64,000 nucleotides of DNA, taken from positions 1 through 64,000 of IMG/VR virus record IMGVR_UViG_3300032257_000002, one strand, 5' to 3'. The DNA is from a virus (lineage: Duplodnaviria; Heunggongvirae; Uroviricota; Caudoviricetes). Shown here one piece after another: positions 7,391 through 64,000 of this stretch. A model generated the notes under the pieces. That model was given only the letters and a program-made list of their open reading frames with translations, searched no databases and was not told the origin of the DNA. The translations under genes and the position numbers were made by a program. The stretch's first letter is position 1, and each line of letters begins with the position of its first letter.

Positions 7391-9559
7391 TTAAATTCTT
7401 AAGTAAGCTTGTTGTACGTCTATAATTGACATAGTTTTTAAGTCTTCAATACTGTATGTAAGCATAAAGTTGTAGACTTTAAAGTCATCAGATGAGTGCA
7501 AGTGCTTACGAATGTTAGCGTGGTCAGAACCAGTCTTTACAAGGCGGTCTTTAAATCCGCGCATACGTTTCCAGAATTTGTAGAATGGTGTCTTATACTT
7601 CCATTGAAATCCGTTAGTGTCTTCAAATACGAAACCTTCTGATGTTTCAAGTTCGATTGATGCTTGATCTGCAGTACGTCGCCATTGTTGTAAGGATACA
7701 AAGTCTGGATGGAGAGTAGTTAGTTGTTTAACTTTGAAACCGGTAAGATTTCCAAAGGAAGTTAGCTGTCGGTAATTGTATTTTTTGAATACCGGCTCGT
7801 TGTAGATTACGTCTAAAAGTATGACTTGGTCTTCTGTATATTTACAGATGTGTGGATCTTTGTGGTGAATTACTTCAAAAACTAGGGAAATGTTTTTAGA
7901 AGTAACAATGTTTTTTAAAATGTCTGTAAGATGCGGAGTCACTAGTTCACGAAACATATCAGCAAAGTCACCTTTGTCTGTAGATTTAGAAGCTATGAAC
8001 CATTCGTCTTTGTGAACGGACATAATACCTAGGAAACCGTTTTCTTTATTGTAAGCTGCGATCGGACCTTGTATAGTTTTGGACATAGTACGAGATTCAG
8101 TTTCAGGACGTTCATCCCAGTTAAAGAACTTGTCGTATGACCTAGCTACAATGGCTCCTGAGGCGTCTAAGAATAGGCCGCGAGCTTTGGTATTGATCTC
8201 ATCCCAAGTACGCTTGTGGAAGACTTTACGAGAGAAGTTAACAGCGTATACACCAGTTTGTAGGTCTTTAACAATGACATCTTTTTTATGTTGAAAATAA
8301 GATAGTAAATTGTTGGCTTGTTCTAGTTTCACTGCTGGAAGGAAAGAATCCTCTGAATCAAGACTTGTATCAAATGTGTTGTTTTGGATTTCTGTACATG
8401 CAACACCTAATCGGTTAATAGTCATCATTCTAAAAGTACCACCAAATTCTTGATTACCATTAAGATTAAAGGTGCGATCGGTATTTTGTATAGGTGCTTT
8501 GTGAATATTTCGATGACCATGAATTTGATAATGAAAATCAAGTGTGTTGTTAACAAATGCCTGATCTACTTCTTCTGATTCACTGTAAGTTCCTACACCT
8601 TTGATGAAGTCAAAGGTAGGTGTAGTAATACCAGGTAAGCAAGGTAGACCGCCATGAGTAACTGTATAGACTTTATTATGGTATTTAAAGTAAGCTAGCT
8701 GACCTAAACGATTGTAAAAATCTTTAAGATCGGAATTAGCAATACCGGCTGCTTCAAATGCATCGAAAGTGGCTCTACTAGCAAGAGGCATTTTGATGTT
8801 TTGATACGAAAATTTATTGCGGATATAATTTCGTAAATGTACTTCGTGATTACCTGTTAAGAAGAGTGTATTCTTCTCTTTACTTAAAGGATGTAAAAGT
8901 TTGAAAGTTTCAACATGTTGAAGACCGCGATCGAAATAGTCACCTACGAAAATATAAAAGTAATCTTTGTTGAAAGGCTGAGTAACGAAATATTCGTTTA
9001 TCGGATCAGTACAAGAATGAACATCTCCGAATACTACGATTTGCTCATAGTCAGATAAGTCATGTTGTATGTTTGAATATTCTGGCCATTCATTAGGTTT
9101 AATAGTGGTTACCCAGTTCGGTATATGTTCTGTTTGAAGACGGTAGAAGGTACGTTCAATAGCTTCATCAGGTACATGTTTGTAGGAGTCGCGTTGACGA
9201 TTCTGTGTAAGAGCTGTCTGTAAAGGTACATCTGAAAAATCTACAAGAACTACTCGATAACGGTGGGCTTGGGCAAGTTGTCGGTATTTGTTAAGTTGTG
9301 AAGTACGGCTATGTGTAGCGTCAACTACAACTAGTTCTCCACGTTCCATACGAGTTTCAAGCATCTGGAATAATAGATTCCAAACATATTTGTCATTTGT
9401 TGGAGATATGACTTGTTGTCCGGTTTTAATAAGCTGAGGAGACTGTACCATTAAACGGATAAAATCAGGTTCTAATGTGTACATAAATAGATTATTGCTT
9501 TTAATCCATGTTGATTTACCGGAGCCCGGAGTTCCACGAGTTAACACGAGAGTTCGCAT
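7391..9559 (-). CDS. trifunctional polynucleotide kinase / metallophosphatase / RNA ligase (bacterial Pnkp-like RNA repair enzyme)
   Basis: P-loop GTPGSGKST at the N-terminus. Calcineurin-like motifs GDVHSC, GDYFDRG, GNHE in the middle. Nucleotidyltransferase motif I AYNKENGFLG plus EGFVFED and KYK (motifs IV/V) in the C-terminal third. Confidence 0.75.
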   Translation of the reverse strand: MRTLVLTRGTPGSGKSTWIKSNNLFMYTLEPDFIRLMVQSPQLIKTGQQVISPTNDKYVWNLLFQMLETRMERGELVVVDATHSRTSQLNKYRQLAQAHRYRVVLVDFSDVPLQTALTQNRQRDSYKHVPDEAIERTFYRLQTEHIPNWVTTIKPNEWPEYSNIQHDLSDYEQIVVFGDVHSCTDPINEYFVTQPFNKDYFYIFVGDYFDRGLQHVETFKLLHPLSKEKNTLFLTGNHEVHLRNYIRNKFSYQNIKMPLASRATFDAFEAAGIANSDLKDFYNRLGQLAYFKYHNKVYTVTHGGLPCLPGITTPTFDFIKGVGTYSESEEVDQAFVNNTLDFHYQIHGHRNIHKAPIQNTDRTFNLNGNQEFGGTFRMMTINRLGVACTEIQNNTFDTSLDSEDSFLPAVKLEQANNLLSYFQHKKDVIVKDLQTGVYAVNFSRKVFHKRTWDEINTKARGLFLDASGAIVARSYDKFFNWDERPETESRTMSKTIQGPIAAYNKENGFLGIMSVHKDEWFIASKSTDKGDFADMFRELVTPHLTDILKNIVTSKNISLVFEVIHHKDPHICKYTEDQVILLDVIYNEPVFKKYNYRQLTSFGNLTGFKVKQLTTLHPDFVSLQQWRRTADQASIELETSEGFVFEDTNGFQWKYKTPFYKFWKRMRGFKDRLVKTGSDHANIRKHLHSSDDFKVYNFMLTYSIEDLKTMSIIDVQQAYLRI

Positions 9560-11951: not shown

Positions 11952-12180
11952 AGTTCTCCTTTTAATTATGTAGTATACATACTAGAACACCAGCCACTTC
12001 CTTTAACTCAAGCCTAGTGACTGATGCTCCATATGCGTACATACTTCTGCAGATTTATACGTTGGCTCTGCAAGGCCTCGATTGGTACTTTAGCGTCTTA
12101 CTCAGGACGTGTCTTAACAGTTATACTCCGATGAAGACAAATAGAGTAAGCCCGTTTTAAAGCCCTGGCTAGGCCGAATG

Positions 12181-12253
12181 TGCTTCGTACCGGAGTCGAA
12201 CCAGCGACACCATCCCTGGTTGGGGACTGCTCTTCCACCTGAGCTAACGAAGC
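12181..12253 (-). tRNA. tRNA gene (73 nt; isotype undetermined, anticodon loop appears non-canonical)
   Basis: The reverse complement gives GCTTCGT/ACGAAGC acceptor stem and D arm GCTC-AGGTGGAA-GAGC. The T arm is GCTGG-TTCGACT-CCGGT. The anticodon stem GTCCC/GGGAT encloses only a 6-nt loop CAACCA. Confidence 0.6.
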
Positions 12254-13020: not shown

Positions 13021-13095
13021 GGGCCTCATACTGGATTTGAACCAGTGACCTCCTGTTTAATCGACAGGTGCTCTAACCTATGAGCTAATGAGGCC
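13021..13095 (-). tRNA. tRNA gene (75 nt incl. extra 5' G pairing with discriminator C, His-like feature; anticodon loop CGATTAA non-canonical)
   Basis: The reverse complement gives G-1 + GCCTCAT/ATGAGGC acceptor. D arm GCTC-ATAGGTTA-GAGC. Anticodon stem CCTGT/ACAGG is perfect, with loop CGATTAA. T arm ACTGG-TTCAAAT-CCAGT. Confidence 0.6.
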
Positions 13096-23205: not shown

Positions 23206-25200
23206 CTATGCACTAAGGAAATAGTGTGATTCTTCAATCATATCTTTAGTTGCAGTACCGTAGAATAGAGTAGGCTTTGGAGGCTTGTTGCCTTCATAGT
23301 TCTCTATAATGTGGTCGATAGCCTGCTCATAGAGACATGCATCAAATTCCACTAATAGTGAATCTTTGTAAGCTTTTCTTACAATGTGCATATCATTTGC
23401 ATGTACCAGGAAGTTATCATGCTTGAACATGCCTCCTGTGTTGTTGTTAACTAGAGCTCTGCCAACCATTCTCAATGATGTACCATCAATAGAGTGTGTA
23501 ATGTTAGCATATAGACCTCGTAGTTTGTTGGTCTTGCCTTGAGCCTTGTCGTCTCCCACTCTGCCGTATGTTGGATTACCTTTGGCATCCTTAAACATTG
23601 GCATTTCTTTGTGGATCTTAGTCTGAGTGTATGACTTCAGTGTACTGTTAGATAGAGCATACAGATCTAGAGGCACTGACTCTGTGTAAGCAATAGACTG
23701 AGCTCTGAAGCCATCTGTCGTATTCCATAGTAGAGATGTATTCTCGTTAGAAGCTACTGCTACTCCCCAATCTGCGATAGCTGAGATGTTCAGTACTTCA
23801 TTACCATATGCCTCTACCATCATAGCCTTAGCTGCTGATGTGCTGATATCAAGGACACTAGCTACTGTACGAATACTAGATCCGTGTAGTAGTGGCTGAT
23901 GGATATCTTTTGCCATCTGACGAGTCTCTAGACCTAGAGATTCCTGTAGCTTGCCGTGTGAATCCAGCTGATCTGGGTGTCCTCCGACATTAGCTCCAAT
24001 CATCATCTTAGGAGATCTGAAACCGATACCACCATGCTGTAGTCCACCATTAGTTGCATCCTCTGATAGAAGGAAGCGTGATGGTTCTTCATTATAGTAG
24101 TCGTCGATAGCTTGTGCTAGTCTACTGTTGTATAGGTCTTTGCCCATATCTCCAGTAGGTTTACGTAACTCTGCTAGGTAGTGCTCTACATTAGCGTCGA
24201 AACGTTCTTCGGCATCACTATGGTGTGTTCTACCATCAATGATAACTACCGCTGAGTATTTCAGTGCATCTGCTCCGCGATCATCTATAATTCTAGCTTC
24301 CGCTAGTTCATACAGACTAGTTTCAAAGGTCTTACCATGAGGATTGAACCCCATTTCTGTAAGATCGTAGTATGATCTAGTTCTATAGTCTAACCACATA
24401 GATAGGTAGAAGCAGTCTTCTTGTTGTAGAAGGCTAAACTTCTCTACCTGCTTACTGACGATATCGTTTAACACTAGTTTATCTATACGCACTTCACCAG
24501 TGCCTTCGATAGCGTTACGATACCATTCAGTCTGCTCTAGGTATACTCGTACTTGATCAGGATCGATATTGATCAGCTTTAGACCGATCTGTGAAGCAGA
24601 ACGAAGGTAGTCTTTCTCAGACTTGTTAAGCTTGAGAGCCTTACCTCCATTACGTACTTTCAAACGTTTCTGCATTACAGTACCTGGTCTTAGGTGAACT
24701 CCCGGAATATATAGAGATGCTTTCTCTTTGTATACTCCGAAAGAGATGAACGTAGTAGTCTTCCAGACAATACGTCCTGTCTCTTCGTTGCGTTCTTGTG
24801 TAGTCTTAGCTGTATGCTGGATGTGACCTAAGTCCATCAATGTTTGGATTATCTGGAATGCTACCATAGACCTCACTATTTCATAGTGGAAGTTGATTAC
24901 TGGTAGTGTCCCTATTTCCAAACGTATTGCAAGCTTACCTACGATTACCTGTAGGTATTCTTCATCTGCATATAGTTCGTTAAGTATCTGTACTACTTTG
25001 CCTGAGTCCATTCTGTGAATGATCCAACCAATTGCGTATGCTAGGTTATCTGTGTAACCACCTCGTAGTAGTTGACGACGTCCCTCGAATTCACGTACAT
25101 GAGATCGTACCTTTTCTACCATGTCGATGGTTGCCCATGACTGGATTAGGTCTGACTTAGCTGGCTTTGTGAATACTGGGTTTGTGTTGTTACTTAACAT
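23206..25200 (-). CDS. single-subunit T7-like DNA-dependent RNA polymerase (664 aa; single-chain equivalent of the N4 RNAPII two-subunit enzyme)
   Basis: LDYRTRSYY (T7 DWRGRVY-like), NPHG, and motif A-like SEDATNGGLQHGG. Motif B-like R..K....YG in RTVASVLDISTSAAKAMMVEAYG. Motif C FKHDNFLVHAND (T7 IHDSFGT). Confidence 0.75.
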   Translation of the reverse strand: MLSNNTNPVFTKPAKSDLIQSWATIDMVEKVRSHVREFEGRRQLLRGGYTDNLAYAIGWIIHRMDSGKVVQILNELYADEEYLQVIVGKLAIRLEIGTLPVINFHYEIVRSMVAFQIIQTLMDLGHIQHTAKTTQERNEETGRIVWKTTTFISFGVYKEKASLYIPGVHLRPGTVMQKRLKVRNGGKALKLNKSEKDYLRSASQIGLKLINIDPDQVRVYLEQTEWYRNAIEGTGEVRIDKLVLNDIVSKQVEKFSLLQQEDCFYLSMWLDYRTRSYYDLTEMGFNPHGKTFETSLYELAEARIIDDRGADALKYSAVVIIDGRTHHSDAEERFDANVEHYLAELRKPTGDMGKDLYNSRLAQAIDDYYNEEPSRFLLSEDATNGGLQHGGIGFRSPKMMIGANVGGHPDQLDSHGKLQESLGLETRQMAKDIHQPLLHGSSIRTVASVLDISTSAAKAMMVEAYGNEVLNISAIADWGVAVASNENTSLLWNTTDGFRAQSIAYTESVPLDLYALSNSTLKSYTQTKIHKEMPMFKDAKGNPTYGRVGDDKAQGKTNKLRGLYANITHSIDGTSLRMVGRALVNNNTGGMFKHDNFLVHANDMHIVRKAYKDSLLVEFDACLYEQAIDHIIENYEGNKPPKPTLFYGTATKDMIEESHYFLSA

Positions 25201-25420: not shown

Positions 25421-25438
25421 TCCCACCCGAAGGTGAGA
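25421..25438 (-). promoter_or_regulatory. conserved hairpin (RNA: UCUCACC-UUCG-GGUGGGA), copy 2
   Basis: Seen in sequence; 10 nt after the stop of 25448..25798. Confidence 0.5.
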
Positions 25439-25915: not shown

Positions 25916-25933
25916 CTCCCACCGAAGTGAGAG
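25916..25933 (-). promoter_or_regulatory. conserved hairpin (RNA: CUCUCAC-UUCG-GUGGGAG), copy 1
   Basis: Seen in sequence; 8 nt after the stop of 25942..26088. Confidence 0.5.
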
Positions 25934-26240: not shown

Positions 26241-26259
26241 ATAAAATCCTACATGGGAG

Positions 26260-26500
26260 TTAAGTACCTTGTACGGTACCTATCTACATAGAAAGGTACT
26301 TTCAGTAGGAACCTTACGAAAATCCCTACAGTACTTAAGCACCTATATATTATTAATAAGAGAAAAAGAAGTAAACCCCTACTTTCTGGGGTATACCGCG
26401 AATCAATAAGTACCGACTGTAGGTACCTTTCTGTATAGAGATAAGTACCCACTGTAGGTACCTAACTACCTTAGATAAGTACCGTGTAAGGTACCTTTCA
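26260..26500. repeat. array of five GTACC dyad units (ATAAGTACC-N6/7-GGTACCT), about 34-bp period for units 3-5
   Basis: Units at 26262-26281, 26294-26316 (degenerate), 26408-26428, 26443-26463, 26477-26496. Inverted partial copy GTACTTAAG at 26330. Confidence 0.6.
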
Positions 26501-32105: not shown

Positions 32106-32133
32106 TGGTTAAGGTGAGATTTGGTATAATAGA
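32106..32133 (+). promoter_or_regulatory. late-promoter-like element GTTAAGG-N10-TGGTATAATAGA (extended -10)
   Basis: TGGTATAAT at 32122-32130, upstream of 32157. Confidence 0.4.
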
Positions 32134-32813: not shown

Positions 32814-35596
32814 AAAGATCTAGTTCACTCCATTCTATAGATCAGATGGTCGAAAGAAAGATTAGTAACACTAAATACCAGGATGTAGTCACAGTTAGCG
32901 AAAATATAGCAGATGTGACTAGTGTAGCTACTAGTATAGACGCAATTATAATTACGAATGCAAATGCCGCAGCTATTGTAACAGTAGCTACTAATATCGC
33001 AGATATTTTAACAGTAGCTGGGATAGAAGTAGAGATACAGTCGCTAGTAGCCGATAAAATAACACTAGATAGTCTATATGCAGATAAGGCTACCCTTGAC
33101 AGTATATTTGCGGATAAGGCAACATTGGATAGCCTGTTTGCAGATAAGATCATACTAGATAGTCTATATGCTGACAAAGCGGCACTAGATGCTGTGTATG
33201 CCGATATAGTTAAAGGTATCGGTACTAATCAACCAACAGACTCTGCTATCCTTAACGCACTTACTAATGCTAATATAGCGATTGACAACGCAGCCTTAAC
33301 TGCAGCAGATGTGGTAGTTACGAATGCTGATAGAGCGGCTGTTGAAAGTATATATGACCAATTTGATGATAGGTACCTTGGAAACAAGGCAGTAGCACCT
33401 ATCGTAGACAATGATGGTGATCCGTTGATTAGTGGTGCTTTGTATTGGGATACTGCGTTATTGCAATTGAGAGTGTATGACGGAGCTGCGTGGAGTAACT
33501 CTTTAACACTTACCGAGTCTTCTGTGTCTACGCTGACTAATAAGACTATCAATGATATATCAAATGAAGTAGCCGCTAACATTGTCCATCTAGAAGTACA
33601 AGCTGATGCTCAGACTATTAATCCTGGTGATATACTAGAAGCAACTAATATTGTTGGCGATGATATTATCAAAGTACAACGACATTCATCCTTAGGTAAT
33701 CCAGTAGTAGGTATAGCCATAGATACTATGAGCCCAGGTACTAACGGTAGAGCGATGCTTACAGGTGTGTATAATAACTATGATTCTATAGGATTAACTT
33801 TACGTACTATCCTATATGGCGATGGGACTGGTGGACTAACAACGACTCCTACTATTGTAGATGGTAATTATAATCAACCTATAGCCTATGTACAAAAGAT
33901 AAATGGTGCTAATGCTGACCTAATTGTGAATATTCACTCAGCACATGAGAGCGCTAGTCTAATTAGTAGTAATCCTGCAGGAAATACTTATGCTGTAGGT
34001 AATGATCTGCAGACCGTAATCGGTCAGGTAGACACTCAACTAGTGGATCTAGAAGCGACTAAGGCCGAGTTAGGCGGAAGTGTTACACAAGAATTCTTGG
34101 TGAGCACGACACCAGTATCTACAAATGCTGCTACGTCAAAAGCATATGTAGATGCGCAATTCGTAGCTGGTGATTCTAATGTTAGTCTTACTGGGACTTT
34201 CGAATTCCTTATCGGAGCTGCTCAAGTATTTCCATTAGACTGCGGTGCACCTAGCTCATACATACCGTCAAGCACTACGTGTATTGTAAATGGTATAGCC
34301 TTAGGTGAAGCGGACTACACTGCTTCTGATGGACAGTTCATATCGTTTACAGGAACTAATCCTATAGAGGGCGATCTTGTTAAACTTGTCGCATATGGTG
34401 GGGCGGATGTGTATACTAAGACTCAATCAGATGCTAGGTATGCAGATATTGCCGTAGAAGCTGAAGCTGCTGCCAATACTACTAAGTTACTAGGGATAGA
34501 GGCTGGAGCAACAGCTGATCAAATAGCGAGTGAAGTTCCATTTACTCCTGTGGGTGATATTGCGGCTACTGATGTACAGAGCGCATTGGCTGAAATAGAT
34601 ACTGAAAAAGCTCCACTAGCTTCTCCAGCTTTAACAGGTACACCTACAATCAATGGTGTAAACGTATCGGGGTACACTAGTTTTAAAAACAAGCTTATTA
34701 ATGGTGGGTTTGATGTATGGCAGAGGGGTAATAGTTTCACAGGTACATCAGTATATACTACTGATAGATGGTTCTTGAATCAAGGTGGTGAAACATCTGC
34801 TGTTACTAAAACTCCTGGGGCAACTAATTCGCTATGGGAAGGTGCTACATTAACTACATTCAATGCTACTGCTGGCTCTTTAGCTAATACAGGGAGGTCA
34901 ATTCAACAACGAATTGAGAATGTCAACCTTTTTAAGAATAAAGATGTTACATTATCTTTAACTGATAATGGTCCTGTAGGTCAAGATATTTATTGTGTAG
35001 TAAGGCAGATAGATGACCTTGGTGTTACATTGTGGGTTGATACAGTTAAGAAGGTTTCTACTGGGGACGGGACAATAAAAAGAAGTTCTCTAACAATCAC
35101 ATTGCCAGATATTGCAGCTAAATATGATGAAGTAAGCTCCAGATTTGATGTCATCATATACCCACAATATACAGATGGGAATTCTATATCAATATCCAAT
35201 ATACAACTAGAAGAAGGCTCAGTAGCTACAGCATTCGAGCAAAGACCTATTGGGTTAGAGTTGAGTTTGTGTCAGAGGTACTATCAGTCTACCGTATACG
35301 GTGGTAATTTTAATCAGATTGGAGGAAGTCAAGAATTCTTTAATGTTACTAGTCGGTCTCACACTTCAACTCTAGGAATTACATTTAGTTTTCATCAACC
35401 AATGAGAAATAATCCTACTATCACGCCTTATTCTACTGTTGGAACAGCAGGGGCTATGACTTCTAATGGTGCAGATTTTGTAATATTTGGCCCTAGTTCC
35501 TCAATATATTCGTTTACCCCTACTAACCAATCAGGAGCCAGTCTTCCAGTAGACTCCCAAAACAGGGTTCATTGGGTAGCAGATGCTGAACTATAA
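32810..35596 (+). CDS. tail fibre / appendage protein (928 aa) with an N-terminal tandem 9-aa repeat region
   Basis: Six tandem ADKxTLDS[LI][FY] repeats. Long Thr/Gly/Asn-rich beta-rich body typical of fibres. Confidence 0.6.
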   Translation: MKRSSSLHSIDQMVERKISNTKYQDVVTVSENIADVTSVATSIDAIIITNANAAAIVTVATNIADILTVAGIEVEIQSLVADKITLDSLYADKATLDSIFADKATLDSLFADKIILDSLYADKAALDAVYADIVKGIGTNQPTDSAILNALTNANIAIDNAALTAADVVVTNADRAAVESIYDQFDDRYLGNKAVAPIVDNDGDPLISGALYWDTALLQLRVYDGAAWSNSLTLTESSVSTLTNKTINDISNEVAANIVHLEVQADAQTINPGDILEATNIVGDDIIKVQRHSSLGNPVVGIAIDTMSPGTNGRAMLTGVYNNYDSIGLTLRTILYGDGTGGLTTTPTIVDGNYNQPIAYVQKINGANADLIVNIHSAHESASLISSNPAGNTYAVGNDLQTVIGQVDTQLVDLEATKAELGGSVTQEFLVSTTPVSTNAATSKAYVDAQFVAGDSNVSLTGTFEFLIGAAQVFPLDCGAPSSYIPSSTTCIVNGIALGEADYTASDGQFISFTGTNPIEGDLVKLVAYGGADVYTKTQSDARYADIAVEAEAAANTTKLLGIEAGATADQIASEVPFTPVGDIAATDVQSALAEIDTEKAPLASPALTGTPTINGVNVSGYTSFKNKLINGGFDVWQRGNSFTGTSVYTTDRWFLNQGGETSAVTKTPGATNSLWEGATLTTFNATAGSLANTGRSIQQRIENVNLFKNKDVTLSLTDNGPVGQDIYCVVRQIDDLGVTLWVDTVKKVSTGDGTIKRSSLTITLPDIAAKYDEVSSRFDVIIYPQYTDGNSISISNIQLEEGSVATAFEQRPIGLELSLCQRYYQSTVYGGNFNQIGGSQEFFNVTSRSHTSTLGITFSFHQPMRNNPTITPYSTVGTAGAMTSNGADFVIFGPSSSIYSFTPTNQSGASLPVDSQNRVHWVADAEL
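33046..33207 (+). repeat. six tandem 27-bp repeats encoding ADKxTLDS[LI][FY] in the fibre gene
   Basis: Seen in sequence and in the translation. Confidence 0.6.
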
Positions 35597-37009: not shown

Positions 37010-37065
37010 ACTAATATAAAGTTTAAGTCTAGTATAATGTGTGGATAATAACTAGTAGGTGAATA

Positions 37066-38979: not shown

Positions 38980-40944
38980 ATGAAAATTAACAAAAATGAA
39001 TTGCTATCGTCACTAAAGCAGGACTTCCGTGCTTCGGAAACCTCGCAAAAAGAGTGGCTACAGAAACGCGAGAACTGGGTAGCAGAGACCTACGGTAAGC
39101 CGTATGGTAACGAGGTCAAAGGTCGTTCTGCAATCGTGTCAAAAGATATCAAAAAGCAGCTAGAGTGGCAACTCCCTAGTTTGGCTGACCCATTCCTAAG
39201 TTCACCGGATGTCATCAAGTGTAGTCCTGTGACATTCGAAGACGTGGAAGCTGCTAGACAAAATGAGCTACTACTAAATACGCAGTTCGTAAGAAAGTTC
39301 CCTAGATATAATTTCATCATGAAAGCTCTACGAGTACTGGCGACAGAAGGTTCATGTATCATCCAAACAGGATGGGACTATGAAGATGAAGAAGTAGAGT
39401 CTGAAGTAGAAGTAATCAAAGTTGATAAGAACGGTGTAGAGTATGTCGATGTAGAGATGGCTACCGTAACTAAGGTCATCAAGAATCAACCTACTGCAAT
39501 AGTCTGTAGAAATGAAGATATTTTCATCGATCCTACATGTATGGACGATCTAGATAAGTGTCAGTTCGTCATTCATAGATATGAAACAGATATGAGTACG
39601 CTGAAGGCGGATGGCAGATATAAGAATCTAGATAAAGTCAAGAATGCCGGAAATAACGGGCGTGATGCTGACTATATTCCAGAAGACCTAACTAACTTCA
39701 GGTTTAAAGATGATGCACGTAAGAAACTGATGGTACATGAGTACTGGGGTAACTACGATGTAGATGGTGATGGTATAGTCGAGTCGATTGTATGTACATG
39801 GGTAAATGACACTATAATCAGACTAGAGACTAACCCATATCCAGATGGTAAACCTCCATTCGTAGTAGTGCCGTTCAATGCTGTACCGTTTCAACTATTC
39901 GGTGAAGCACTAGCTGAGAACATCGGAGATAATCAGAAGGTTAAAACTGCTATTACTCGTGGCTTGATAGACAATATGGCTAGAAGTAATAATGGTCAAG
40001 TCGGTATGCGTAAAGGCTCGATCGATGCTACTAATAAGAAGCGTTTCCTAAATGGTGATAACTTCGAGTACAACGGTACGCCGAATGACTTCTGGCAAGG
40101 TAGCTATAACCAGATCCCTAGTAGTGCATTCGATATGCTACAACTGATGAATAACGAGATCGAAAGCCAGACAGGTGTAAAGAGTTTCAGCGGTGGAATC
40201 ACAGGTGGATCACTAGGTTCAACAGCTACAGGAGCGAGAGGTGCACTAGATGCTACAGCTACAAGACGACTGAATCTAGTTCGTAATGTGGCTGAGAATA
40301 TGATAAAGCCTATCATGCGAAAATGGATGGCATATAACGCTGAGTTCTTAGAAGAAGAAGAGATTGTCAGAATCACTAACGAAGAGTATGTGCCGATCAG
40401 AAAAGATGATCTGCAAGGTAAAGTAGATATTGACATCAGTATCAGTACAGCTGAAGATAACGCTGCGAAAGCACAAGAGCTAAGTTTCTTGATGCAGACA
40501 CTAGGTAATACAATGCCGTTCGAAATGACTCAGATGGTAATGGCTGAATTCGCTAAACTAAGTAGAATGCCGGATCTAGAGAAGCGTATCAAAGAACACC
40601 AACCTCAACCAGATCCTGCTGCGGAACAAGCTAAGCAGCTAGAACTGATGAAGCTACAGAAAGAGATAGAAGAGATGGATGCGAATATCGCTGATAAGTA
40701 TGCAAGAGCCGGTGAGAATGAAATAGATGCTGAACTCAAGCGTAACAAAGCACAAGTAGAAGCTGCGAAGGCTAGAAAGCTTCATAGTGATGCGGATAAA
40801 GTAGACCTGGACTTCCTGAAATCTGATGAAGACTATGAACGTCAGATGGATAGAGAAGAGAAAGATATGGAACGAAGACATCAGTTAGAGTTGATGCTAC
40901 TTCAGGCGAAAGCAGGCGATAAAAATATTGGAACAGGAGTGTAA
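38980..40944 (+). CDS. portal protein (654 aa)
   Basis: Size, position between lysis genes and scaffold/MCP as in N4 order, and a charged coiled-coil C-terminus. No motif-level proof. Confidence 0.6.
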   Translation: MKINKNELLSSLKQDFRASETSQKEWLQKRENWVAETYGKPYGNEVKGRSAIVSKDIKKQLEWQLPSLADPFLSSPDVIKCSPVTFEDVEAARQNELLLNTQFVRKFPRYNFIMKALRVLATEGSCIIQTGWDYEDEEVESEVEVIKVDKNGVEYVDVEMATVTKVIKNQPTAIVCRNEDIFIDPTCMDDLDKCQFVIHRYETDMSTLKADGRYKNLDKVKNAGNNGRDADYIPEDLTNFRFKDDARKKLMVHEYWGNYDVDGDGIVESIVCTWVNDTIIRLETNPYPDGKPPFVVVPFNAVPFQLFGEALAENIGDNQKVKTAITRGLIDNMARSNNGQVGMRKGSIDATNKKRFLNGDNFEYNGTPNDFWQGSYNQIPSSAFDMLQLMNNEIESQTGVKSFSGGITGGSLGSTATGARGALDATATRRLNLVRNVAENMIKPIMRKWMAYNAEFLEEEEIVRITNEEYVPIRKDDLQGKVDIDISISTAEDNAAKAQELSFLMQTLGNTMPFEMTQMVMAEFAKLSRMPDLEKRIKEHQPQPDPAAEQAKQLELMKLQKEIEEMDANIADKYARAGENEIDAELKRNKAQVEAAKARKLHSDADKVDLDFLKSDEDYERQMDREEKDMERRHQLELMLLQAKAGDKNIGTGV

Positions 40945-41308
40945 CATGGGATTTCTAGAGGACAAACAACGACAGACAGTGCAGAGTGAGAAAGCTGCTG
41001 CATATGATCAGCTAGTCGCTGAACAGGCTAAAAAACAGCTGGCAGAGAGTGCGTATACTGAAGGAGCTAAAGAAGGTCTGGCAGCAGGGGCGTATCAAGT
41101 ACTAGCTAGTGCACAACCTACTCCTAATATAGGTAATCCCGCAAATGCTAATGTGTCTAATGACGAAGTCAATACATGGTATCAACGCACAGGACAAATG
41201 CCTACTATGAAAGACATTGAGTTTATGAGACAGATGGATACACTGCCGAGTAAAAACGCAGATCAAAATATTACCGCTGGACTAGCTGGACAGGTAGGTG
41301 TAGCGTAA
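40928..41308 (+). CDS. hypothetical Ala/Gln-rich protein (126 aa)
   Basis: ORF track. Confidence 0.5.
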   Translation: MEQECNMGFLEDKQRQTVQSEKAAAYDQLVAEQAKKQLAESAYTEGAKEGLAAGAYQVLASAQPTPNIGNPANANVSNDEVNTWYQRTGQMPTMKDIEFMRQMDTLPSKNADQNITAGLAGQVGVA

Positions 41309-41541
41309 TGGAACCAGATGCAATGGCAGGACTGGCTCAAGGTGCAAACCAAGGAGCTCCAAGTAACAACCTAGATCAGATCGTAGCGATGCTAGTTCAA
41401 GGGGCAACTCCTGAGGAACTAATACAAATGGGTGTACCACAAGAGCTAGTGATGGCTGCTATAGATGCACTGACGCAACAAACACAGACTATGGCTCCTC
41501 AACAAGAAGGTCTAGCCGGTATGCAACTACCGAGAGGGTAA
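41308..41541 (+). CDS. hypothetical Ala/Gln-rich protein (77 aa)
   Basis: ORF track; TAATG overlap. Confidence 0.45.
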   Translation: MEPDAMAGLAQGANQGAPSNNLDQIVAMLVQGATPEELIQMGVPQELVMAAIDALTQQTQTMAPQQEGLAGMQLPRG

Positions 41542-41880
41542 ATGATGGATGGACTAGCAGTACAGAACTTCGATACAAAGACAACTAAGCCACAAGATCA
41601 GCAAGCTATGATGCATAACTGGTTAATGGAAAACAAGCCAGAGTACCGTAACAAAGTGCAGATGGATAAAAGATTGCTAGAAGAAGATAAACCACTAGTT
41701 GATACGTCTTTAGCAGCCATCCCACTAGGACTAGCAGCAACTACACTAGGTAAATCAGGACTGTTGTCGTCACTAGGCAATGCCAGCAAAATTGCATATC
41801 ATGCTGACACAGAAGCACCTACCATACCTAGAGGTGAACAATCGATGACTAAATACATCAAGCAATGGATTGGTAAATGA
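41542..41880 (+). CDS. hypothetical protein (112 aa)
   Basis: ORF track. Confidence 0.5.
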   Translation: MMDGLAVQNFDTKTTKPQDQQAMMHNWLMENKPEYRNKVQMDKRLLEEDKPLVDTSLAAIPLGLAATTLGKSGLLSSLGNASKIAYHADTEAPTIPRGEQSMTKYIKQWIGK

Positions 41881-42053
41881 AAGCCGAACTAAACCTCACT
41901 AATGTGCTAACTGCAGTAGTAACTGCGCTGTGTATATGGATAGGTTCAACCTTGTACAATCTAGATAAGAAAGTAGCGTTGATGGAGTATCAGATGATTC
42001 AAAGTAATGCTGTACTGCAAGCTCTGAGTGAAGAGAAGAAGGATAAGTAATGG
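41880..42053 (+). CDS. small membrane protein (57 aa)
   Basis: Manual translation MKAELNLTNVLTAVVTALCIWIGSTLYNLDKK...; ATGA overlap. Confidence 0.3.
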
Positions 42054-42543: not shown

Positions 42544-42580
42544 CGGTTTTATACAAGAAAATACTAGACTAAGGATAACA

Positions 42581-57771: not shown

Positions 57772-57829
57772 GGAATACTAAAGCAAAAAATAGGTATACT
57801 ATACCATAAATACTACATACGGGGATAGA

Positions 57830-60800
57830 ATGACAAACGAAGATATGAATATGTGGCAGGAGAGGCTGCAAAGTAATACTGAGGCCTTCTATCCTGACTC
57901 ACCGATAGAGACTCCTCCAGCACTAAATAAAATCAGTACACTAGCTAAAAATAAAGATCAGAAACTAAACAACCTATCCGGCAATCAACTACAAATGGGG
58001 CTATCTAACCTATTTACAGATGCGCTAGTTTTAAAGGATGATGATGGTCGCTATATTCAAAAAACGCAAGTAGGTGCAGATGGTAACGCAGAATTTCTCA
58101 AAGAGAGAATACCTGATACAACACTAAAAAGCTATTATGATAAAGAGCTCGGGGAAACAGTAACTTACGATAGAGACACTACACGTAACCTGTACTTGTT
58201 CGGTCCTGAAGCAATGAAAGGTGCACCCGCCTATAAAGCTGGATTAGCTGACCGTGATGCTGGCGCTAAAGCACGATATAACCCAAATGACCCTGGAGCA
58301 CTACTAGAGACGCAGAATCGCATAGACTTGTTCGTAAAACATCGTGGACGACAACCTACTGCTCAAGAAGTAGAAAAACTAAAATATGGATGGGAGACTG
58401 GTCCTGAAGGCGTGCAAGCAGGCGCTGAACCATTAATGAATACTGAGTTTGAGTATGACGCCGCTACTAAATACGAAGATATGCTGCATCATAATATTGG
58501 AATGGATGCCGCAGCAAAACTGGATCAGGATATATACTCTCACTACTTAACCAGTGGTAGAAGTCCTGAGTTCTTAAAGACTCACCCTAAATTTGCGGCT
58601 CAATACGCAGCTCTAGGCAGTGGTGCAAGTGAATACTACAATGTGGATAATCCATTGATGTCAGGAGGTGGACCTACAGACTTACCTTCTGAATACCAGA
58701 TAGATACAAAACCATCATCAGGCTACGTAGGTGCTATGAAAGGTACTACTAAAGACAGAGATGAAATGCTAGGTGAATCAGTGGATATTGCACAATCTAG
58801 CCTAGTACAAGCGTGGGGTAAAGCTAATAAGCTGCTAGTAGACTCTACAAAAGCTATCGGTAATAAGCTAGGATTCTCACAGAAGCAGATGGATGAGTTT
58901 GTATCTGATGAGTCTGGTATATTCGGTACGAAGTTCGATAACCTAGCTAAACGCGAAGTGGCTGATAAGATCACTGGTGTAATGGCTAAGACTCGTGAAG
59001 AACAACAAGCTGGAATGGATGACGCGCTAGCAAATATAAAAAAAGGCAACTATGCTGAGGCGTCATTCGACGTATTCAAAGTACTGCCGTATATGCTAGG
59101 TGATAGTGCAGGGGAAATGGCTCAGATAGCAATGGGTGCTCCAGGTATAGCTATGGCTGTCGGAGCACGTGTAAACATGGATGCTGAAGAGTACGAAAAG
59201 AATAATGGAGAAAAGCCTGATACAAACTGGTTCCTAGGCAGTACGCTAACAAATGCAGCAGCTCTATTCGGAGAAAGATTTCTACTAAAAAGTGGTATCT
59301 CAGGTATCATAGAAAAAGGTGTAGCAAAAGCACAGAGAACTGGTGGTGTAGCGTTGTCGACTGTCGGTGAAGCTGCACAAGAATACTTCGATCAAGTACA
59401 ACAAGAATACCAAACACAAAAAGAAGGTGATAAGTCACTGGTAGAGATTGCAACAAGTCCAGAAGCGCAACTATCTGCTGTAGCTGGTGGTGTAATGGGT
59501 GGAGCTCTGCGAGGAGCAGGTGAAACGACTTCAGGAACACTAGAGACACTAAACGAAATAGCAGTACAACAATCGAATAAGCGAAAGAAAGCAGAAGAAC
59601 AGCAAAAAGTTGAAAGTGGAGATGTAACTAGTGTAACCGGCAAAGTAGCTACAGAAGCTACGGAAAACTTCCTAACTAGCGTTGAGAGTAGTGAAGTACT
59701 AGATGATGCTACCAAAAAAGACGCTACAGCTATACGTGACAATACCCTAACAGAGGTAGAATCACTAAGTGAAAGACTAACTAATCTGGACCCTGAATCA
59801 GATGAGTATGCAGATGTGGAAAGTGTACTGGAGACTAAACTAGGTCATCTAGAAAGACTAAATACAATCGTGCCGGCAGATCAGACTACTGATACAGCAG
59901 AGACTACTACAAAAGAAACAGTAACTAAAGAACAACTTCAGAGAGCACAGGATATAGTGGCTAAGTATGATGCTGTTGAAGATCGAGCTCTAACAGCTGA
60001 TGAACTAAATGAAGTAGGTGCGGCTAGAGTACTACTAGAGGAAGCAGCAACACTAAACACTACAAAGTCTGCTGAACAGGTAACCGAAGATCCGGTGGCA
60101 CTACAGACAGAACTAGATACTATAGACCCTACTGAAGGAAAGCGTAGCGCTAAAAGAGCTGTGGAGATCGAAGCTAAACTGGATGCTGCAATACCACAAG
60201 TCGAAGAACGACTAGGTACTATAGGGGAAGAAATCTCTGTACTAAGTCAAGACGAAGAGGCTAACGTAGACCAAATAGCAGCACTGATCGCTGAGCAAGA
60301 TACACTAGGTAAAATAGTAACTGCTAAGGAAACTAAAACAGTAGAAGCACGCCAGAAAACGTATGATGAACTCATAGATGCTACTATAGAAGAAGGTGTA
60401 GCTACTAAAGAAATTCCGGATACTAAAGAAGCAAGAGAACAAGTACGCGAAATGCTGAAAGAGAGAATGCCTAAGTTCTCTGCTGAGCTGTCTCAAGATA
60501 TAGAACGTAGTGATCTACAGCTGACATCTGCTATCAGTGAATCTAAGGATATCCGTGGAGTAGTAGAGAAGGGTGGTAAGAAAGAAACTCTACAAGATGT
60601 AACTACTGTAACAGATTCTACTATAGACTCTATGGTAAAAGGTAAAACTGAACTAGGTGACCTAGCTAAGCTGACTATGGGTAGATTCGTAAGTAAGGTA
60701 CAAGAAAGACTGAAACAGCATCTATCTAAAGGTGCACCAGTACAGAAGACTCTAGAGAAAATCTACACTAAAGTAAAGGAAGCTGTAACTTCTGGTAATA

Positions 60801-63800
60801 AGGCAGTAGAAAAACTAGCTACGTTGACAGAAGGTGAAGTAACATCTGAACGTGTGATGAGAGCAGCTGCTATCGCTGTAGCAAATGTACATAAAAGTAT
60901 CAAGTCGGAAGAAGATATACAAGCAAATAAAGGTATCTATACTCCGGTAGACTATACACGTGTAAGTAATATAGTAGTGCAGATCGGTAAAGAGTACATG
61001 AACTCGTATGGTATGAGACTGTCTGGCAATAACGTGAAGACTAATGAACTGTATGCTAAGATCGGTCAGACTATCCTGGATGCTGCACAAGACCTAGGTA
61101 TGGTACAAGTGCAGAAACAGCGTATACCACTAATCGATATGGTAGATGCTGATGGTATGAGGATCACTAAGAGTAATCCAGATAACCTAGTGGTAACACA
61201 GACTGACGGAGTAACGTATGTCGATGAAGACGTAGTGAGTATAGTAGAACCAGAAGCAGATAAAGGTGAAGCGTCAATAGGTAAAGCTATGGATACACTG
61301 ATCGGTGCACTGCGTCCTACTACATATGAAGTACCGACAGAACAACCAGTGACTGAGGTCCCTACCGATAATAATGAAGCTATATCGAAAGAGCATACTG
61401 AAGTAATTCAGAAGATGAATGCTATGAAATTCAGAATAAAGCCTGAGTTTCTACAGCTGCTGAAAGACCTAAAGAAACGTAAAGAAGACCTAGGTCTTTC
61501 AATGGATCAATTCCTCAGCAGAGATCCGATAGCAAAAGCTATGATCGGTGTGAACACTGCAGGTACGATGCTGACTAAAACATCTGAGCAAGGTAGAAGG
61601 CTGAACCGATCGGATAACCTAGCTAAGCTACTAGATAACCTAGAGATGCTAGATGAGGACTTCCACTTCAACTATGAGAGTGCTGTCAATACTCGTATAC
61701 ACGTAATGCAAACACTGCTGGAGTTCCAGGGTGATAAATATATGGCTAGAAACATCCTAAGTGGAGCTGAGTATGAGATCGATCCGTCTACAGAAGAAGG
61801 TAAACAAGAACTACATGTTCTAAAAGAAGCTATAGCCGATGACCTATTCGGTGATCCTGCTAAACTGGACCTAGTGGATAAATCTAAACAGCCTGAAACT
61901 AATAAAGATATAGCGAAGCTAAAAACACTAGATAAATGGGTAGCTAACTATAATAAGACTGGGAAGTTCCACATAGAAGATGCTGGAAAGATGGCTAAAG
62001 AACTAGGTATGTCTAGTCCGTTCAAAGCTATGTCACTAGTAAAAGCAGTAGCTGAACTGAATGGTGTAGCTGACGGTAAAGTAAAAACTGACTATATGGG
62101 TCAATTCGATATGAGTGCGTCTGGAGTAATCAATACACTACTAGATCTAGTTGGTGAACCTGGTGTAAATGAAATACTAGATAAACTGCGTACTGGTGAG
62201 ATGGACCCGTACATGTATCTAAACAGTATACTAGAAGAGCAGACTAGTGAGACATATGAAACACTGAAAGCTACAATGGCTGAGATAAACGAGAATATCG
62301 ATATCGATAGTCGTGATATGGCTAAGTATACCGTAATGAAGTGGTTCTACGGAGCTGCGAATGAGACAGTGGCTAGAGAGATGTCACATGACCTAGCTGT
62401 AGATATAGTGATGGAAGGTGTTACAGGATTCAATGATGATGCTGTGGCATTCCTGAATAAAGCGATCGGTAGTAATAAGTACGTAGTAGATGTACTAAGT
62501 GAGGACCAAAGTGGTACTCCTGTGTATGATATAACTCCTGATGATATGAAAGCCTTCGAAAGCTGGATCGTCGATAACATCGCAAAACCATATGTAGAAC
62601 TACTACCTAAAGCATTCCCTGCTGTAGTCGCGTATCATAAGACAATGTCAGAAATCTATACTGGACTAGAACGTCTAGGATGGGATGGCAAGATCGGTAC
62701 TGCGATGAGCGCTATGCTAGGTGATGGTAACAAGTTCAAGATGAGCACGAAGAAAGCTAAAGCTATGCTCAATATGCTGACTAATGAAAAAGGTGAAGTA
62801 GAGGTAGGTGGTAAATTCATTCCAGTGAATGAGATGTTCCTAAACCAAACATCACTGAAAGTAAATCCTCAGCACGCTGCTGATGCTGCTCAGCTACTGA
62901 TCACTATGCAACACCTAATGGAAGAGTTCGGCGAAGATGCTATAACAGCAATGACAGTACACGATGCTATATATACGAGCCCGAAACTACTGATCGCTGC
63001 TAAAGCTAGATTCGAAGAACTGCTGAAAGAAGTAGCTATCAAGTATGACTTCAGAGATATGGCACTAAGAGAGCTAGAATCCCTACTAGAGAATCTTCCT
63101 GAGGATCAAAAAGATAGTGAGTCGGCTCTAGAGAAAAGAGTAGCAGAACTACGTAAAGAGATAGATGAAAGTCGTGCTCGTAAGAAGGATATCCTAACTA
63201 ATCCTGAGTACACAACTAACTTCTTCGGAAGTAAGACGATCGAAGTGCAACCGACAGGAAAGATAAGTCTAGATGAGACTGCAAAGCCTACGAAAAAAGC
63301 ACCAAGTGCGGAAGCTATCAAGAAAGAGATGGAAAGACGTAAGGCTGAAAAAGAAGCAGAGAAAGCGAAGCCAAGTAGTATAGATAAACTGTATACAGCT
63401 ATTGAAAGTAAAGATACTGAAGCTATAATCGAAGCTATAGAAAACATAGAAGTCTCAGAAAAGTATATATCTCTGAAAGAGAAAGTACTGAAAAATCTGA
63501 CGTCTGATGAGATCACTATACATGAAGGTGAAGACTTCGCAGGTGGATATGGTCGTATCTGGATGGGTGACAAAGGTGCTATACTAAAAGAGATGACAAC
63601 TGGTGAAAATCAAGGTGATACACTGATGAAAATCATGTCTCACGAGATAGACCACGGGTATACGTATAGTTATATAGAGAAAGCACTACAAGGTAAGAAG
63701 CCTGCTGAGATCATATATCTCCAGAGAGTGCTAAGTAAACTAGAGAAAGCGATGAAGACCTCTAACTTCAGACCAGAGGTACAGGAACGTCTAGCATATA

Positions 63801-64000
63801 TACTAGATAGTAATGTGACTACAGATAACCTAGAAGCTCATAGAATAAGTGAGCTGATCTCAGTAATGAGGAATGAGCCTAAAGTGGCAGAGGCTATAAG
63901 TGGTATACTAAGTGAGCAGAGTAAGAAGACTCTATTCCAACACATAGCGAAAATCATCAAAGATATAGTAGACTATGTCAAGAAGATTGGTGTAGATAAA
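57830..64000 (+). CDS. giant virion-associated RNA polymerase (N4 vRNAP-like), first 2,057 codons; gene continues past window end
   Basis: Uninterrupted frame from ATG 57830 to the window end. T7-like motif A QFDMSASGVINTLLDL (62102-62149) and motif C TVHDAIYT (about 62951-62974). Upstream LTMGR. HEIDH zincin-like motif at 63641-63655. Confidence 0.7.
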   Translation, partial: MTNEDMNMWQERLQSNTEAFYPDSPIETPPALNKISTLAKNKDQKLNNLSGNQLQMGLSNLFTDALVLKDDDGRYIQKTQVGADGNAEFLKERIPDTTLKSYYDKELGETVTYDRDTTRNLYLFGPEAMKGAPAYKAGLADRDAGAKARYNPNDPGALLETQNRIDLFVKHRGRQPTAQEVEKLKYGWETGPEGVQAGAEPLMNTEFEYDAATKYEDMLHHNIGMDAAAKLDQDIYSHYLTSGRSPEFLKTHPKFAAQYAALGSGASEYYNVDNPLMSGGGPTDLPSEYQIDTKPSSGYVGAMKGTTKDRDEMLGESVDIAQSSLVQAWGKANKLLVDSTKAIGNKLGFSQKQMDEFVSDESGIFGTKFDNLAKREVADKITGVMAKTREEQQAGMDDALANIKKGNYAEASFDVFKVLPYMLGDSAGEMAQIAMGAPGIAMAVGARVNMDAEEYEKNNGEKPDTNWFLGSTLTNAAALFGERFLLKSGISGIIEKGVAKAQRTGGVALSTVGEAAQEYFDQVQQEYQTQKEGDKSLVEIATSPEAQLSAVAGGVMGGALRGAGETTSGTLETLNEIAVQQSNKRKKAEEQQKVESGDVTSVTGKVATEATENFLTSVESSEVLDDATKKDATAIRDNTLTEVESLSERLTNLDPESDEYADVESVLETKLGHLERLNTIVPADQTTDTAETTTKETVTKEQLQRAQDIVAKYDAVEDRALTADELNEVGAARVLLEEAATLNTTKSAEQVTEDPVALQTELDTIDPTEGKRSAKRAVEIEAKLDAAIPQVEERLGTIGEEISVLSQDEEANVDQIAALIAEQDTLGKIVTAKETKTVEARQKTYDELIDATIEEGVATKEIPDTKEAREQVREMLKERMPKFSAELSQDIERSDLQLTSAISESKDIRGVVEKGGKKETLQDVTTVTDSTIDSMVKGKTELGDLAKLTMGRFVSKVQERLKQHLSKGAPVQKTLEKIYTKVKEAVTSGNKAVEKLATLTEGEVTSERVMRAAAIAVANVHKSIKSEEDIQANKGIYTPVDYTRVSNIVVQIGKEYMNSYGMRLSGNNVKTNELYAKIGQTILDAAQDLGMVQVQKQRIPLIDMVDADGMRITKSNPDNLVVTQTDGVTYVDEDVVSIVEPEADKGEASIGKAMDTLIGALRPTTYEVPTEQPVTEVPTDNNEAISKEHTEVIQKMNAMKFRIKPEFLQLLKDLKKRKEDLGLSMDQFLSRDPIAKAMIGVNTAGTMLTKTSEQGRRLNRSDNLAKLLDNLEMLDEDFHFNYESAVNTRIHVMQTLLEFQGDKYMARNILSGAEYEIDPSTEEGKQELHVLKEAIADDLFGDPAKLDLVDKSKQPETNKDIAKLKTLDKWVANYNKTGKFHIEDAGKMAKELGMSSPFKAMSLVKAVAELNGVADGKVKTDYMGQFDMSASGVINTLLDLVGEPGVNEILDKLRTGEMDPYMYLNSILEEQTSETYETLKATMAEINENIDIDSRDMAKYTVMKWFYGAANETVAREMSHDLAVDIVMEGVTGFNDDAVAFLNKAIGSNKYVVDVLSEDQSGTPVYDITPDDMKAFESWIVDNIAKPYVELLPKAFPAVVAYHKTMSEIYTGLERLGWDGKIGTAMSAMLGDGNKFKMSTKKAKAMLNMLTNEKGEVEVGGKFIPVNEMFLNQTSLKVNPQHAADAAQLLITMQHLMEEFGEDAITAMTVHDAIYTSPKLLIAAKARFEELLKEVAIKYDFRDMALRELESLLENLPEDQKDSESALEKRVAELRKEIDESRARKKDILTNPEYTTNFFGSKTIEVQPTGKISLDETAKPTKKAPSAEAIKKEMERRKAEKEAEKAKPSSIDKLYTAIESKDTEAIIEAIENIEVSEKYISLKEKVLKNLTSDEITIHEGEDFAGGYGRIWMGDKGAILKEMTTGENQGDTLMKIMSHEIDHGYTYSYIEKALQGKKPAEIIYLQRVLSKLEKAMKTSNFRPEVQERLAYILDSNVTTDNLEAHRISELISVMRNEPKVAEAISGILSEQSKKTLFQHIAKIIKDIVDYVKKIGVDK

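Follow-up and report, generated by a model that had tools for sequence, protein, structure and literature searches.

The 64,000-nucleotide (nt) window analyzed here, positions 1 to 64,000 of the IMG/VR virus record IMGVR_UViG_3300032257_000002, encodes a protein of 664 amino acids (aa) that is a single-subunit T7-type RNA polymerase (RNAP) with the complete catalytic set. We consider it likely that this protein is a functional single-chain enzyme of the RNAPII type of bacteriophage N4, where RNAPII is a heterodimer of gp15 (269 aa) and gp16 (404 aa; PDB 6DT7/6DT8/6DTA), and that it acts within an N4-like transcription programme of three stages. The open reading frame (ORF), at 23206-25200, begins with ATG and is preceded by AGGAG 8 nt upstream. 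The original prediction, made from the sequence alone, had located this ORF correctly without giving its strand, which is the minus strand.

Catalytic landmarks, fold and family

The landmarks of a T7-type RNAP are found in order along the protein, as listed in Table 1. The equivalent of the T/DxxGR motif is preceded by 270 residues, compared with 420 in T7 RNAP and 235 in N4 RNAPII. In the family alignment, R275 and Y278 of this element are invariant and D271 and R273 are at least 90% conserved. An N286-P-H-G landmark lies between this element and motif A, in which T383 and G386 are invariant. The segment containing H569 and D572 is the best-conserved stretch with respect to T7 RNAP and N4 RNAP2. 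Seven residues of the catalytic set (D381, R427, K431, H569, D572, H594, D595) are invariant across the 53 aligned relatives. Four of the five landmarks named in the original prediction (DYRTRSYY, NPHG, the motif A-like segment and motif C) are thus confirmed in the order given there.

The fifth landmark, motif B, was only partly read correctly. The motif has the same spacing as T7 RNAP (T626-R627-x3-K631-x7-Y639-G640-S) and N4 gp16 (R134...K...Y-G-S), and residues 427-438 form a helix in the structural model. R427 and K431 occupy the positions of T7 R627 and K631, as had been predicted, but the predicted YG is H439-G440. His439 (codon CAC, 23884-23886) takes the place of Tyr639, the residue that senses the ribose 2'-OH in T7 RNAP and that every studied relative retains. 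Both the spacing and the hhalign alignment with gp16, which pairs LLHGSS with ALYGSE, place it there. The misreading probably stems from a conserved Y465-G466 pair, a separate element 26 residues downstream and outside motif B. A His at the Tyr639 position is present in 83 of 83 family members recovered by a strict pattern match. It is likewise present in almost every one of about 190 longer sequences, including proteins of 800-950 aa, aligned with a hidden Markov model (HMM); the exceptions are a few Ala or Asn residues, with Tyr or Phe only in the most remote matches.

In T7 RNAP, Tyr639 closes the O-helix and contributes to discrimination between ribonucleoside and deoxyribonucleoside triphosphates. 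Loss of this residue is established to relax that discrimination (cited in PMC4551944). This opens a reading in which the His has changed the substrate or role of the enzyme, for instance towards the synthesis of DNA or mixed polymers or towards a main function as a primase in replication. The occurrence of His in essentially the whole family points the same way, as does the apparent counterpart of T7 Tyr571, which is His415 in the HMM alignment alone. Overall, we regard such a change of role as quite improbable and retain an RNAP of the N4 RNAPII type as the preferred interpretation. A limited literature search returned no paper describing a natural His at the Tyr639 position. The broader proposal that there is a large clade of compact, unsplit RNAPs of N4-related phages in which the O-helix Tyr639 is replaced by His is put forward tentatively, as one we still hold to be doubtful.

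Membership of the single-subunit RNAP family is supported by both sequence profiles and structure. The single protein matches PHROG 414 'RNA polymerase' with an E-value of 2.9e-12 and gave no match to the PDB with phmmer. Some relatives (P0088, P0090) carry a precomputed match to the Pfam family PF00940. The large protein database contains 92 relatives, with E-values down to 0, and an exhaustive profile search returned 1099 cluster representatives at E<1e-3, including 110 at E<1e-30 that are mostly 630-720 aa in length; the ORF is therefore no chance open frame. When the family profile was searched against the PDB, T7 RNAP (2.3e-6) and N4 RNAP2 (8.5e-6) were recovered. The family aligned with N4 gp16 over 214 columns at an hhalign probability of 94.6%. 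Alignment with the single T7 sequence reached a probability of 95.9% with the wrong register in the middle, where T7 Y639-G640 fell opposite Y465-G466 and motif A was matched to an adjacent T7 segment. These pairings were discarded, and residue equivalences were instead set by spacing and the gp16 alignment.

AlphaFold2, supplied with 53 sequences, produced a confident one-chain model (predicted local distance difference test, pLDDT, 92.1; predicted template modelling score, pTM, 0.90). Foldseek matched this model over the full chain to T7 RNAP and to mitochondrial RNAPs, with a probability of 1.0 for T7 RNAP and POLRMT. The protein combines a right-hand polymerase fold with an RNAP-specific N-terminal domain. 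Identity as a family A DNA polymerase was rejected, given that the closest structural and sequence relatives are not DNA polymerases. The similarity searches against N4 and T7 and the structure prediction, proposed as checks alongside the original prediction, hence support a single-subunit RNAP, and similarity to such enzymes is present.

Relation to N4 RNAPII and other RNA polymerases

N4 RNAPII is the best relative of solved structure once its two chains are joined, scoring 45.2 bits with the family HMM compared with 26.7 for T7 RNAP (single-sequence phmmer scores of 15.1 and 2.6, respectively). The two enzymes share the same fold and a reduced architecture, are colinear without a linker and are nearly equal in total size (664 vs 673 aa), in agreement with the original prediction. 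In both cases the gene lies in the early region, and the phage has an N4-type structural module and probably also encodes a virion RNA polymerase (vRNAP). They differ in that N4 RNAPII consists of two polypeptides with a Tyr in motif B, whereas the window enzyme is one chain with His439, and their identity is only 15-19%. The spacing of the landmarks (N-terminus to DxxGR, DxxGR to motif A, motif A to B, motif B to C, and motif C to the end) is 271, 110, 46, 168 and 69 residues in the window enzyme; 236, 108, 59, 208 and 62 in joined gp15 and gp16; and 421, 116, 90, 185 and 71 in T7 RNAP. The reduced architecture of the window enzyme, a short N-terminal domain followed by palm, fingers and thumb, is of the N4 RNAPII type.

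As originally noted, the enzyme is much smaller than T7 RNAP (883 aa). It lacks about 220 residues relative to that enzyme and is about 115 residues shorter than Syn5 RNAP (779 aa), the shortening being concentrated in the promoter-binding N-terminal domain and in the insertion within the fingers. It further differs from T7 RNAP and its relatives in the His at the Tyr639 position, and the window contains no recurrent promoter of 17-23 bp. Yeast Rpo41 and human POLRMT are more distant in type, being eukaryotic enzymes of 900-1200 aa with large N-terminal extensions and a Tyr in motif B. N4 RNAPII itself needs cofactors and single-stranded templates. The characterized single-chain phage RNAPs range from 779 aa (Syn5, the smallest) to 906 aa (KP32) (PMC11617373). 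At 664 aa, the window enzyme is more than 100 residues below any of these, which would be of practical interest only if it is cofactor-free; the suggestion that it could serve as a useful minimal polymerase is uncertain.

The chain is continuous where N4 RNAPII is broken. N4 gp15 ends ...EFAEKEVID and gp16 begins MQTFTAREY..., and the family HMM spans the junction of the two concatenated sequences as one domain without a gap. The N4 break corresponds to residues 306/307 of the window enzyme, somewhat beyond the boundary of residues 260-280 that had been guessed. Residues 255-335 are continuous in the 53-sequence alignment, with an indel of at most two residues, in a variable loop at 307-308, and the AlphaFold2 model is confident through this region. 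About 80 independent clusters, drawn from different samples and 28-67% identical, have the same uninterrupted length, and the one-piece gene is also found in two cultured phage genomes (PT11-V19, R22Y). One uninterrupted frame therefore covers both parts, as predicted, and an assembly or sequencing artefact masking a stop or start between two genes is effectively excluded.

The gene is interrupted in a different way in some relatives. Nine clusters of about 400 aa contain only the first half of the RNAP, and all end exactly at ...FLL(S/A)ED. Their identification as natural split subunits was rejected; they represent exon 1 of intron-interrupted genes. In the contigs concerned, the order is exon 1, an Rfam group I intron, an HNH_3 endonuclease ORF and the rest of the RNAP gene, and the intron scores 56.8 (L002) and 54.8 (L003) bits against a gathering score of 50. 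Exon 1 ends ...GAA GAT (last base U), the intron ends ...CAGG and exon 2 starts GCA ACT AAC GGT GG. Predicted splicing yields ...LSED/ATNGGLQH..., identical to the sequence of the window protein. As at least 12 database clusters end at the motif A Asp residue, the intron appears to be common in one subclade. An intron was looked for in the RNAP gene of the window and none was found. The window does contain two large ORFs for free-standing HNH endonucleases (397 and 410 aa), one of which immediately follows the major capsid gene. Taken with the introns and endonucleases of the relatives, these ORFs show that phages of this group often carry homing elements.

The nearest homologs in cultured phages are the annotated 'RNA polymerase' of vB_AmeP_PT11-V19 (WAK44711, 670 aa) and gp93 of vB_AmeP-R22Y, which belong to the same family as the window enzyme (tblastn E 1e-46; family HMM 525 bits; 28% identical). 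Both are single-chain proteins of about 660-670 aa with His at the Tyr639 position, and both are encoded in the early region of cultured Schitoviridae. They differ from the window enzyme in having SxSxR where it has DxRxR, and their genomes measure 68-71 kb, compared with a contig of about 103 kb for the window phage. They are annotated and uncharacterized. The gene itself is consequently not new, and its fold, its chemistry and the existence of homologs are already known. Absent from the searchable literature are the clade of unsplit small RNAPs in vRNAP-associated phages, the location of the N4 break in the 306/307 loop and the clade-wide His.

A different small RNAP is encoded by Alteromonas phage AD45-P1 (103.9 kb; NC_021532), the closest cultured phage by its portal protein. 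It too lies in the early arm, at 40472-43835, where gp044, gp046 and gp048, all annotated as hypothetical, are pieces of an N4-type RNAPII. The first of these carries DSRGR and stops 34 residues later, in the same place as N4 gp15. Motif A and a Tyr-containing motif B (SRQMLKKAATPMLYGSS) are found in the second, and HNLDS and IHDAF in the third. The gene between the latter two, gp047, encodes a GIY-YIG endonuclease and divides the gp16-like part a second time, separating motif B from the H..D motif. The AD45-P1 pieces are only marginally similar to the window enzyme (BLASTP 5e-5 over 114 residues). Given that the RNAPII of AD45-P1 is split and contains the Tyr, the two kinds of small RNAP may not be orthologs. 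Split enzymes with Tyr and unsplit enzymes with His both occur among the relatives of the window phage, and the relationship is not one of simple orthology.

These comparisons bear on the original description of the enzyme as an apparent fusion of the two N4 subunits. A true fusion would mean that two ancestral subunit genes, arranged as in N4, were joined in this lineage. The colinearity with gp15 and gp16 without an extra linker would agree with such an event, as would the placement of the phage in an N4-related group. In addition, AD45-P1 and N4 share a break about 33-34 residues after DxxGR, so the split could be old within the group. However, a single chain is the state of the T7-like, mitochondrial and virion RNAPs, that is, of every other branch of the polymerase family, and of the whole family described here (about 110 clusters). 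Heterodimers account for 24 of more than 500 homologs in a survey by the N4 group (PMC4496689). The single-chain family is also large and diverse, occurring in at least two phage groups (62-71-kb PT11-V19-like genomes and contigs of 100-205 kb). Moreover, the window enzyme is no closer to the split enzyme of AD45-P1 than to that of N4, and the Tyr/His difference separates split and unsplit types cleanly. Since one chain is usual in the polymerase family and the split is a minority state, the term fusion is unsupported and we consider the event improbable. Judging from these sequences, the unsplit gene may be explained more simply as the ancestral arrangement or as a separate lineage.

Transcription in an N4-related phage

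The predicted role of the enzyme depends on the identity of the phage. The portal protein is 63.5% identical to those of the Alteromonas podoviruses AD45-P1 to P4 (100-104 kb), 51% identical to those of PT11-V19 and R22Y, and about 43% identical to those of hundreds of N4-like phages (Schitoviridae). Terminase, gp57-like protein and major capsid protein occur in N4 order, and the gene order matches AD45-P1 and PT11-V19. An RNAP protein identical to that of the window belongs to a 103.5-kb contig in the database. On the evidence of these genes, the window is classified as part of an N4-related phage, a marine relative of about 100 kb. The enzyme is most likely the counterpart of N4 RNAPII because the phage is N4-related, with a portal like that of AD45-P1 and a giant ORF with polymerase motifs.

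This giant ORF was missing from the program-made list of ORFs, as it extends beyond the end of the window. Its motifs occur in order and with sensible spacing (TRIHV at about 1311, D1439, R1507-x3-K-x7-YG and VHD1724). The first motif segment reads FHFNYESAVNTRIHV...FQGDK and is followed by the segment GQFD1439MSASGVINTLL, for which the N4 vRNAP counterpart is VEADGVTNGPINAMM. Motif B reads R1507DMAKYTVMKWFYG, corresponding to R1663GIAKNPLTITIYG of N4 vRNAP. The further segments VNPQHAADAAQL and TVHD1724AIY then follow in order. In an hhalign comparison with the 664-aa family, motif B, H..D and motif C are in register at a non-significant E-value of 0.026. PT11-V19 encodes a 2082-aa 'RNA polymerase' at the same place, and AD45-P1 has an 11.7-kb gp50-like gene. 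Phage R22Y has two RNAP genes, one of which encodes a 2083-aa virion enzyme, and these phages have been placed in Schitoviridae (PMC11705849). On the basis of its position, its ordered motifs and these counterparts, the giant ORF probably encodes a vRNAP analogous to N4 gp50.

From a control region at about 25.85-26.53 kb, the genes run outward in two arms. The leftward arm has the RNAP gene as its third ORF, about 1.2 kb from this region, and the position of the gene at the head of the arm is conserved in one relative (L006). The control region contains a cluster of hairpin-capable AGGTACC units. Upstream of its RNAP gene, a distant relative (L014, 6140-6240) carries three or four similar units, TTGTACC-N8/9-GGTACAA, and no analogous hairpin clusters were found in the closer relatives L006 and L009. 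The vRNAP of N4 uses hairpins as its early promoters (PMC4496689); by analogy, the AGGTACC units are candidate early promoters. A role for GGTAC repeats as a dispersed promoter was rejected, as they are confined to 26250-26500. The same part of the genome holds two near-identical TTCG-loop stem-loops, CTCAC(C)TTCGG(G)TGGGA. The RNAP gene is preceded by two small ORFs, and one stem-loop follows closely on each of them. Chance alone would be expected to produce no such element, and the rest of the window has none. Possible roles are those of terminators, attenuators or RNA-stabilizing hairpins.

The leftward arm provides little sign of a promoter of the T7 kind. A de novo motif search of its 19 intergenic gaps recovered only AT-rich words that were no commoner than in shuffled sequences, the gaps being those of a 64-kb window within a contig of about 103 kb. 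The lack of a shared motif speaks against promoters like those of T7 and is in keeping with N4 RNAPII, whose promoters are minimal and AT-rich. A single candidate promoter, CAYCCWGAAYWW, had 14 matches compared with 7.4 expected. It was rejected on finding that it encodes the C-terminal tail H/Y-P-E-Y/L-F-I-stop of small ORFs. At least 10 small ORFs across both arms share a C-terminus of the form (K/H)(Y/H)-P-E-(Y/L)-(F/L/Y)-(I/V)-stop, usually with the ribosome-binding site of the next gene immediately after; they constitute a multi-copy protein family.

These results weigh on whether the enzyme is instead an autonomous T7-style polymerase, which would recognize its own double-stranded promoter, work without cofactors and drive most transcription of the phage. 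Besides the shuffle-level words in the leftward gaps and the coding nature of the one apparent motif, the promoter-binding domain at the N-terminus is smaller than that of T7 RNAP by about 150 residues and the rightward arm has host-type promoters. This alternative is unlikely, if less so than a fusion. The preferred reading remains an enzyme of the N4 RNAPII type.

In the structural arm, intergenic gaps contain host-type extended -10 sites. Sites of the GTTAAG-N17-TGGTATAAT type lie at 32122, 55970 and elsewhere in this arm, and two of the three sites in Table 1 have GTTAAG 17 nt upstream. These sites suggest that the late structural genes are read by the host sigma-70 RNA polymerase, as in N4.

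A scheme of three stages can be outlined by comparison with N4. The giant polymerase carried in the virion would first transcribe the leading leftward genes, including the RNAP gene. The 664-aa enzyme would then transcribe the remaining leftward, or middle, genes, which cover nucleotide metabolism, RNA repair and many small ORFs. In the final stage, host sigma-70 RNAP would drive the rightward structural genes from extended -10 promoters. What the comparisons show is the identity and fold of the enzyme, its intact catalytic residues, its single chain and its colinearity with gp15 and gp16, along with the N4-type structural module and the position of the gene. The timing of the enzyme and the set of genes that it transcribes are inferred, as are any need for a single-strand-binding cofactor like that of N4 RNAPII and any effect of the family-wide His.

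Several observations weigh against an RNAPII-type enzyme in such a programme. With respect to the enzyme, the match to PF00940 RNA_pol reaches 19.7 bits, below the gathering cutoff of 22, and covers residues 555-640 only. In AD45-P1, the closest cultured phage by portal, the RNAPII is split and of the Tyr type. With respect to the vRNAP, searches of the giant ORF against N4 gp50 (BLASTP), the PDB, Pfam, PHROGs, phage genomes (tblastn) and the large protein database gave nothing significant, and its single-sequence AlphaFold2 model is of low confidence (pLDDT 42). No homologs of the N4 cofactors gp1 and gp2 were found in the window (phmmer, E<=1); these cofactors differ or are replaced even among N4-like phages (PMC7145618). 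Finally, the late-arm sigma-70 motif is barely above shuffled controls (6 sites, compared with a maximum of 5).

Neighbouring genes and implications

Other genes of the window include a 722-aa fused polynucleotide kinase/phosphatase-RNA ligase (PHROG 8238, E 1e-195). Two tRNA genes lie near it, one of them called by ARAGORN as tRNA-Asn with the anticodon ATT and the other with an unassigned anticodon, and the ligase and tRNA genes possibly form a tRNA-repair module. In the rightward arm, a 928-aa tail-fibre gene contains four tandem repeats of 30 nt and a 46-nt segment that is 91.5% identical to a tail-fibre gene of Synechococcus phage S-CAM7. This segment is the only near-identical DNA match to a known phage in 20 kb. 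The coordinates of all features are collected in Table 1.

Table 1. Features of the 64,000-nt window and of two intron-containing relatives
Feature	Position	Strand	Remarks
Complete coding sequence of the 664-aa single-chain RNAP	23206..25200	-	Stop codon included
N-terminal domain, about residues 1-260	24421..25200	-	Matches most of N4 RNAP1/gp15
W-L-D271-Y-R273-T-R275-S-Y-Y278, T/DxxGR equivalent (T7 D421-W-R-G-R)	24367..24396	-	Aligned with T7 DWRGRVY and N4 DKRGRTY
D306/D307, counterpart of the N4 gp15/gp16 break	24280..24285	-	Variable surface loop, continuous chain; gp15 C-terminus aligns to residue 306
Motif A, F-L-L-S-E-D381-A-T-N-G-G-L-Q-H-G-G, catalytic Asp381 (T7 D537)	24028..24075	-	Aligned with N4 gp16 LDATSSGLQ
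Motif B/O-helix, T426-R427-QMA-K431-DIHQPLL-H439-G440-SS	23875..23925	-	
R-G-L-Y-A-N-I-T-H569-S-I-D572-G-T-S-L-R	23467..23520	-	Equivalent of T7 P-N-F-V-H784-S-Q-D787-G
Motif C, F-K-H594-D595-N-F-L-V-H-A-N-D, catalytic Asp595 (T7 H811-D812)	23392..23427	-	Aligned with T7 IHDSF and N4 VHDCF
Four hairpin-capable units AGGTACC-N6/7-GGTACTTA and one degenerate inverted unit	26259..26500	-	About 0.02 expected per 4 kb
Host-type extended -10 sites (TGGTATAAT or TAGTATAAT)	32122-32130, 37030-37038, 55970-55978	+	Structural-arm intergenic gaps
Giant open frame, at least 2068 aa, likely ATG at 57830	57794..64000	+	Runs past the window end, directly after structural genes
TTCG-loop stem-loops	25421-25437, 25917-25931	-	
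Small ORFs with shared C-terminus, ends near	1748, 4093, 4609, 6923, 7165, 9578	-	
Small ORFs with shared C-terminus, ends near	27212, 27607, 27924, 28145	+	
HNH endonuclease ORF, 397 aa	48946-50139	+	
HNH endonuclease ORF, 410 aa	2010-3242	-	
Polynucleotide kinase/phosphatase-RNA ligase	7391-9559	-	
tRNA genes	12180-12253, 13021-13094	-	
Tandem repeats in tail-fibre gene	33050-33206		
S-CAM7-like segment in tail-fibre gene	35243-35288	+	
Group I intron (RF00028) and HNH_3 homing-endonuclease ORF	L002 3637-4616, L003 2489-3469		Directly after the motif A Asp codon

The motif B substitution concerns a position that is heavily engineered in T7 RNAP, and the family-wide loss of the ribose-sensing Tyr represents an unexpected natural experiment there. 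If the His alters sugar selection or pH dependence, the family would provide natural variants at the site that engineers mutate to make modified RNA.

The enzyme also bears on the history of RNAPII. In N4-like phages, heterodimeric RNAPII has been regarded as a regular companion of the virion RNAP; how the split originated and what benefit it brings have been described as unclear (PMC4496689). The unsplit enzymes of many N4-related phages, together with the doubly split enzyme of AD45-P1, are comparators that make the origin of the heterodimer testable. If the enzymes of this family are the unsplit counterparts of N4 RNAPII, they would show how and why the heterodimer arose.

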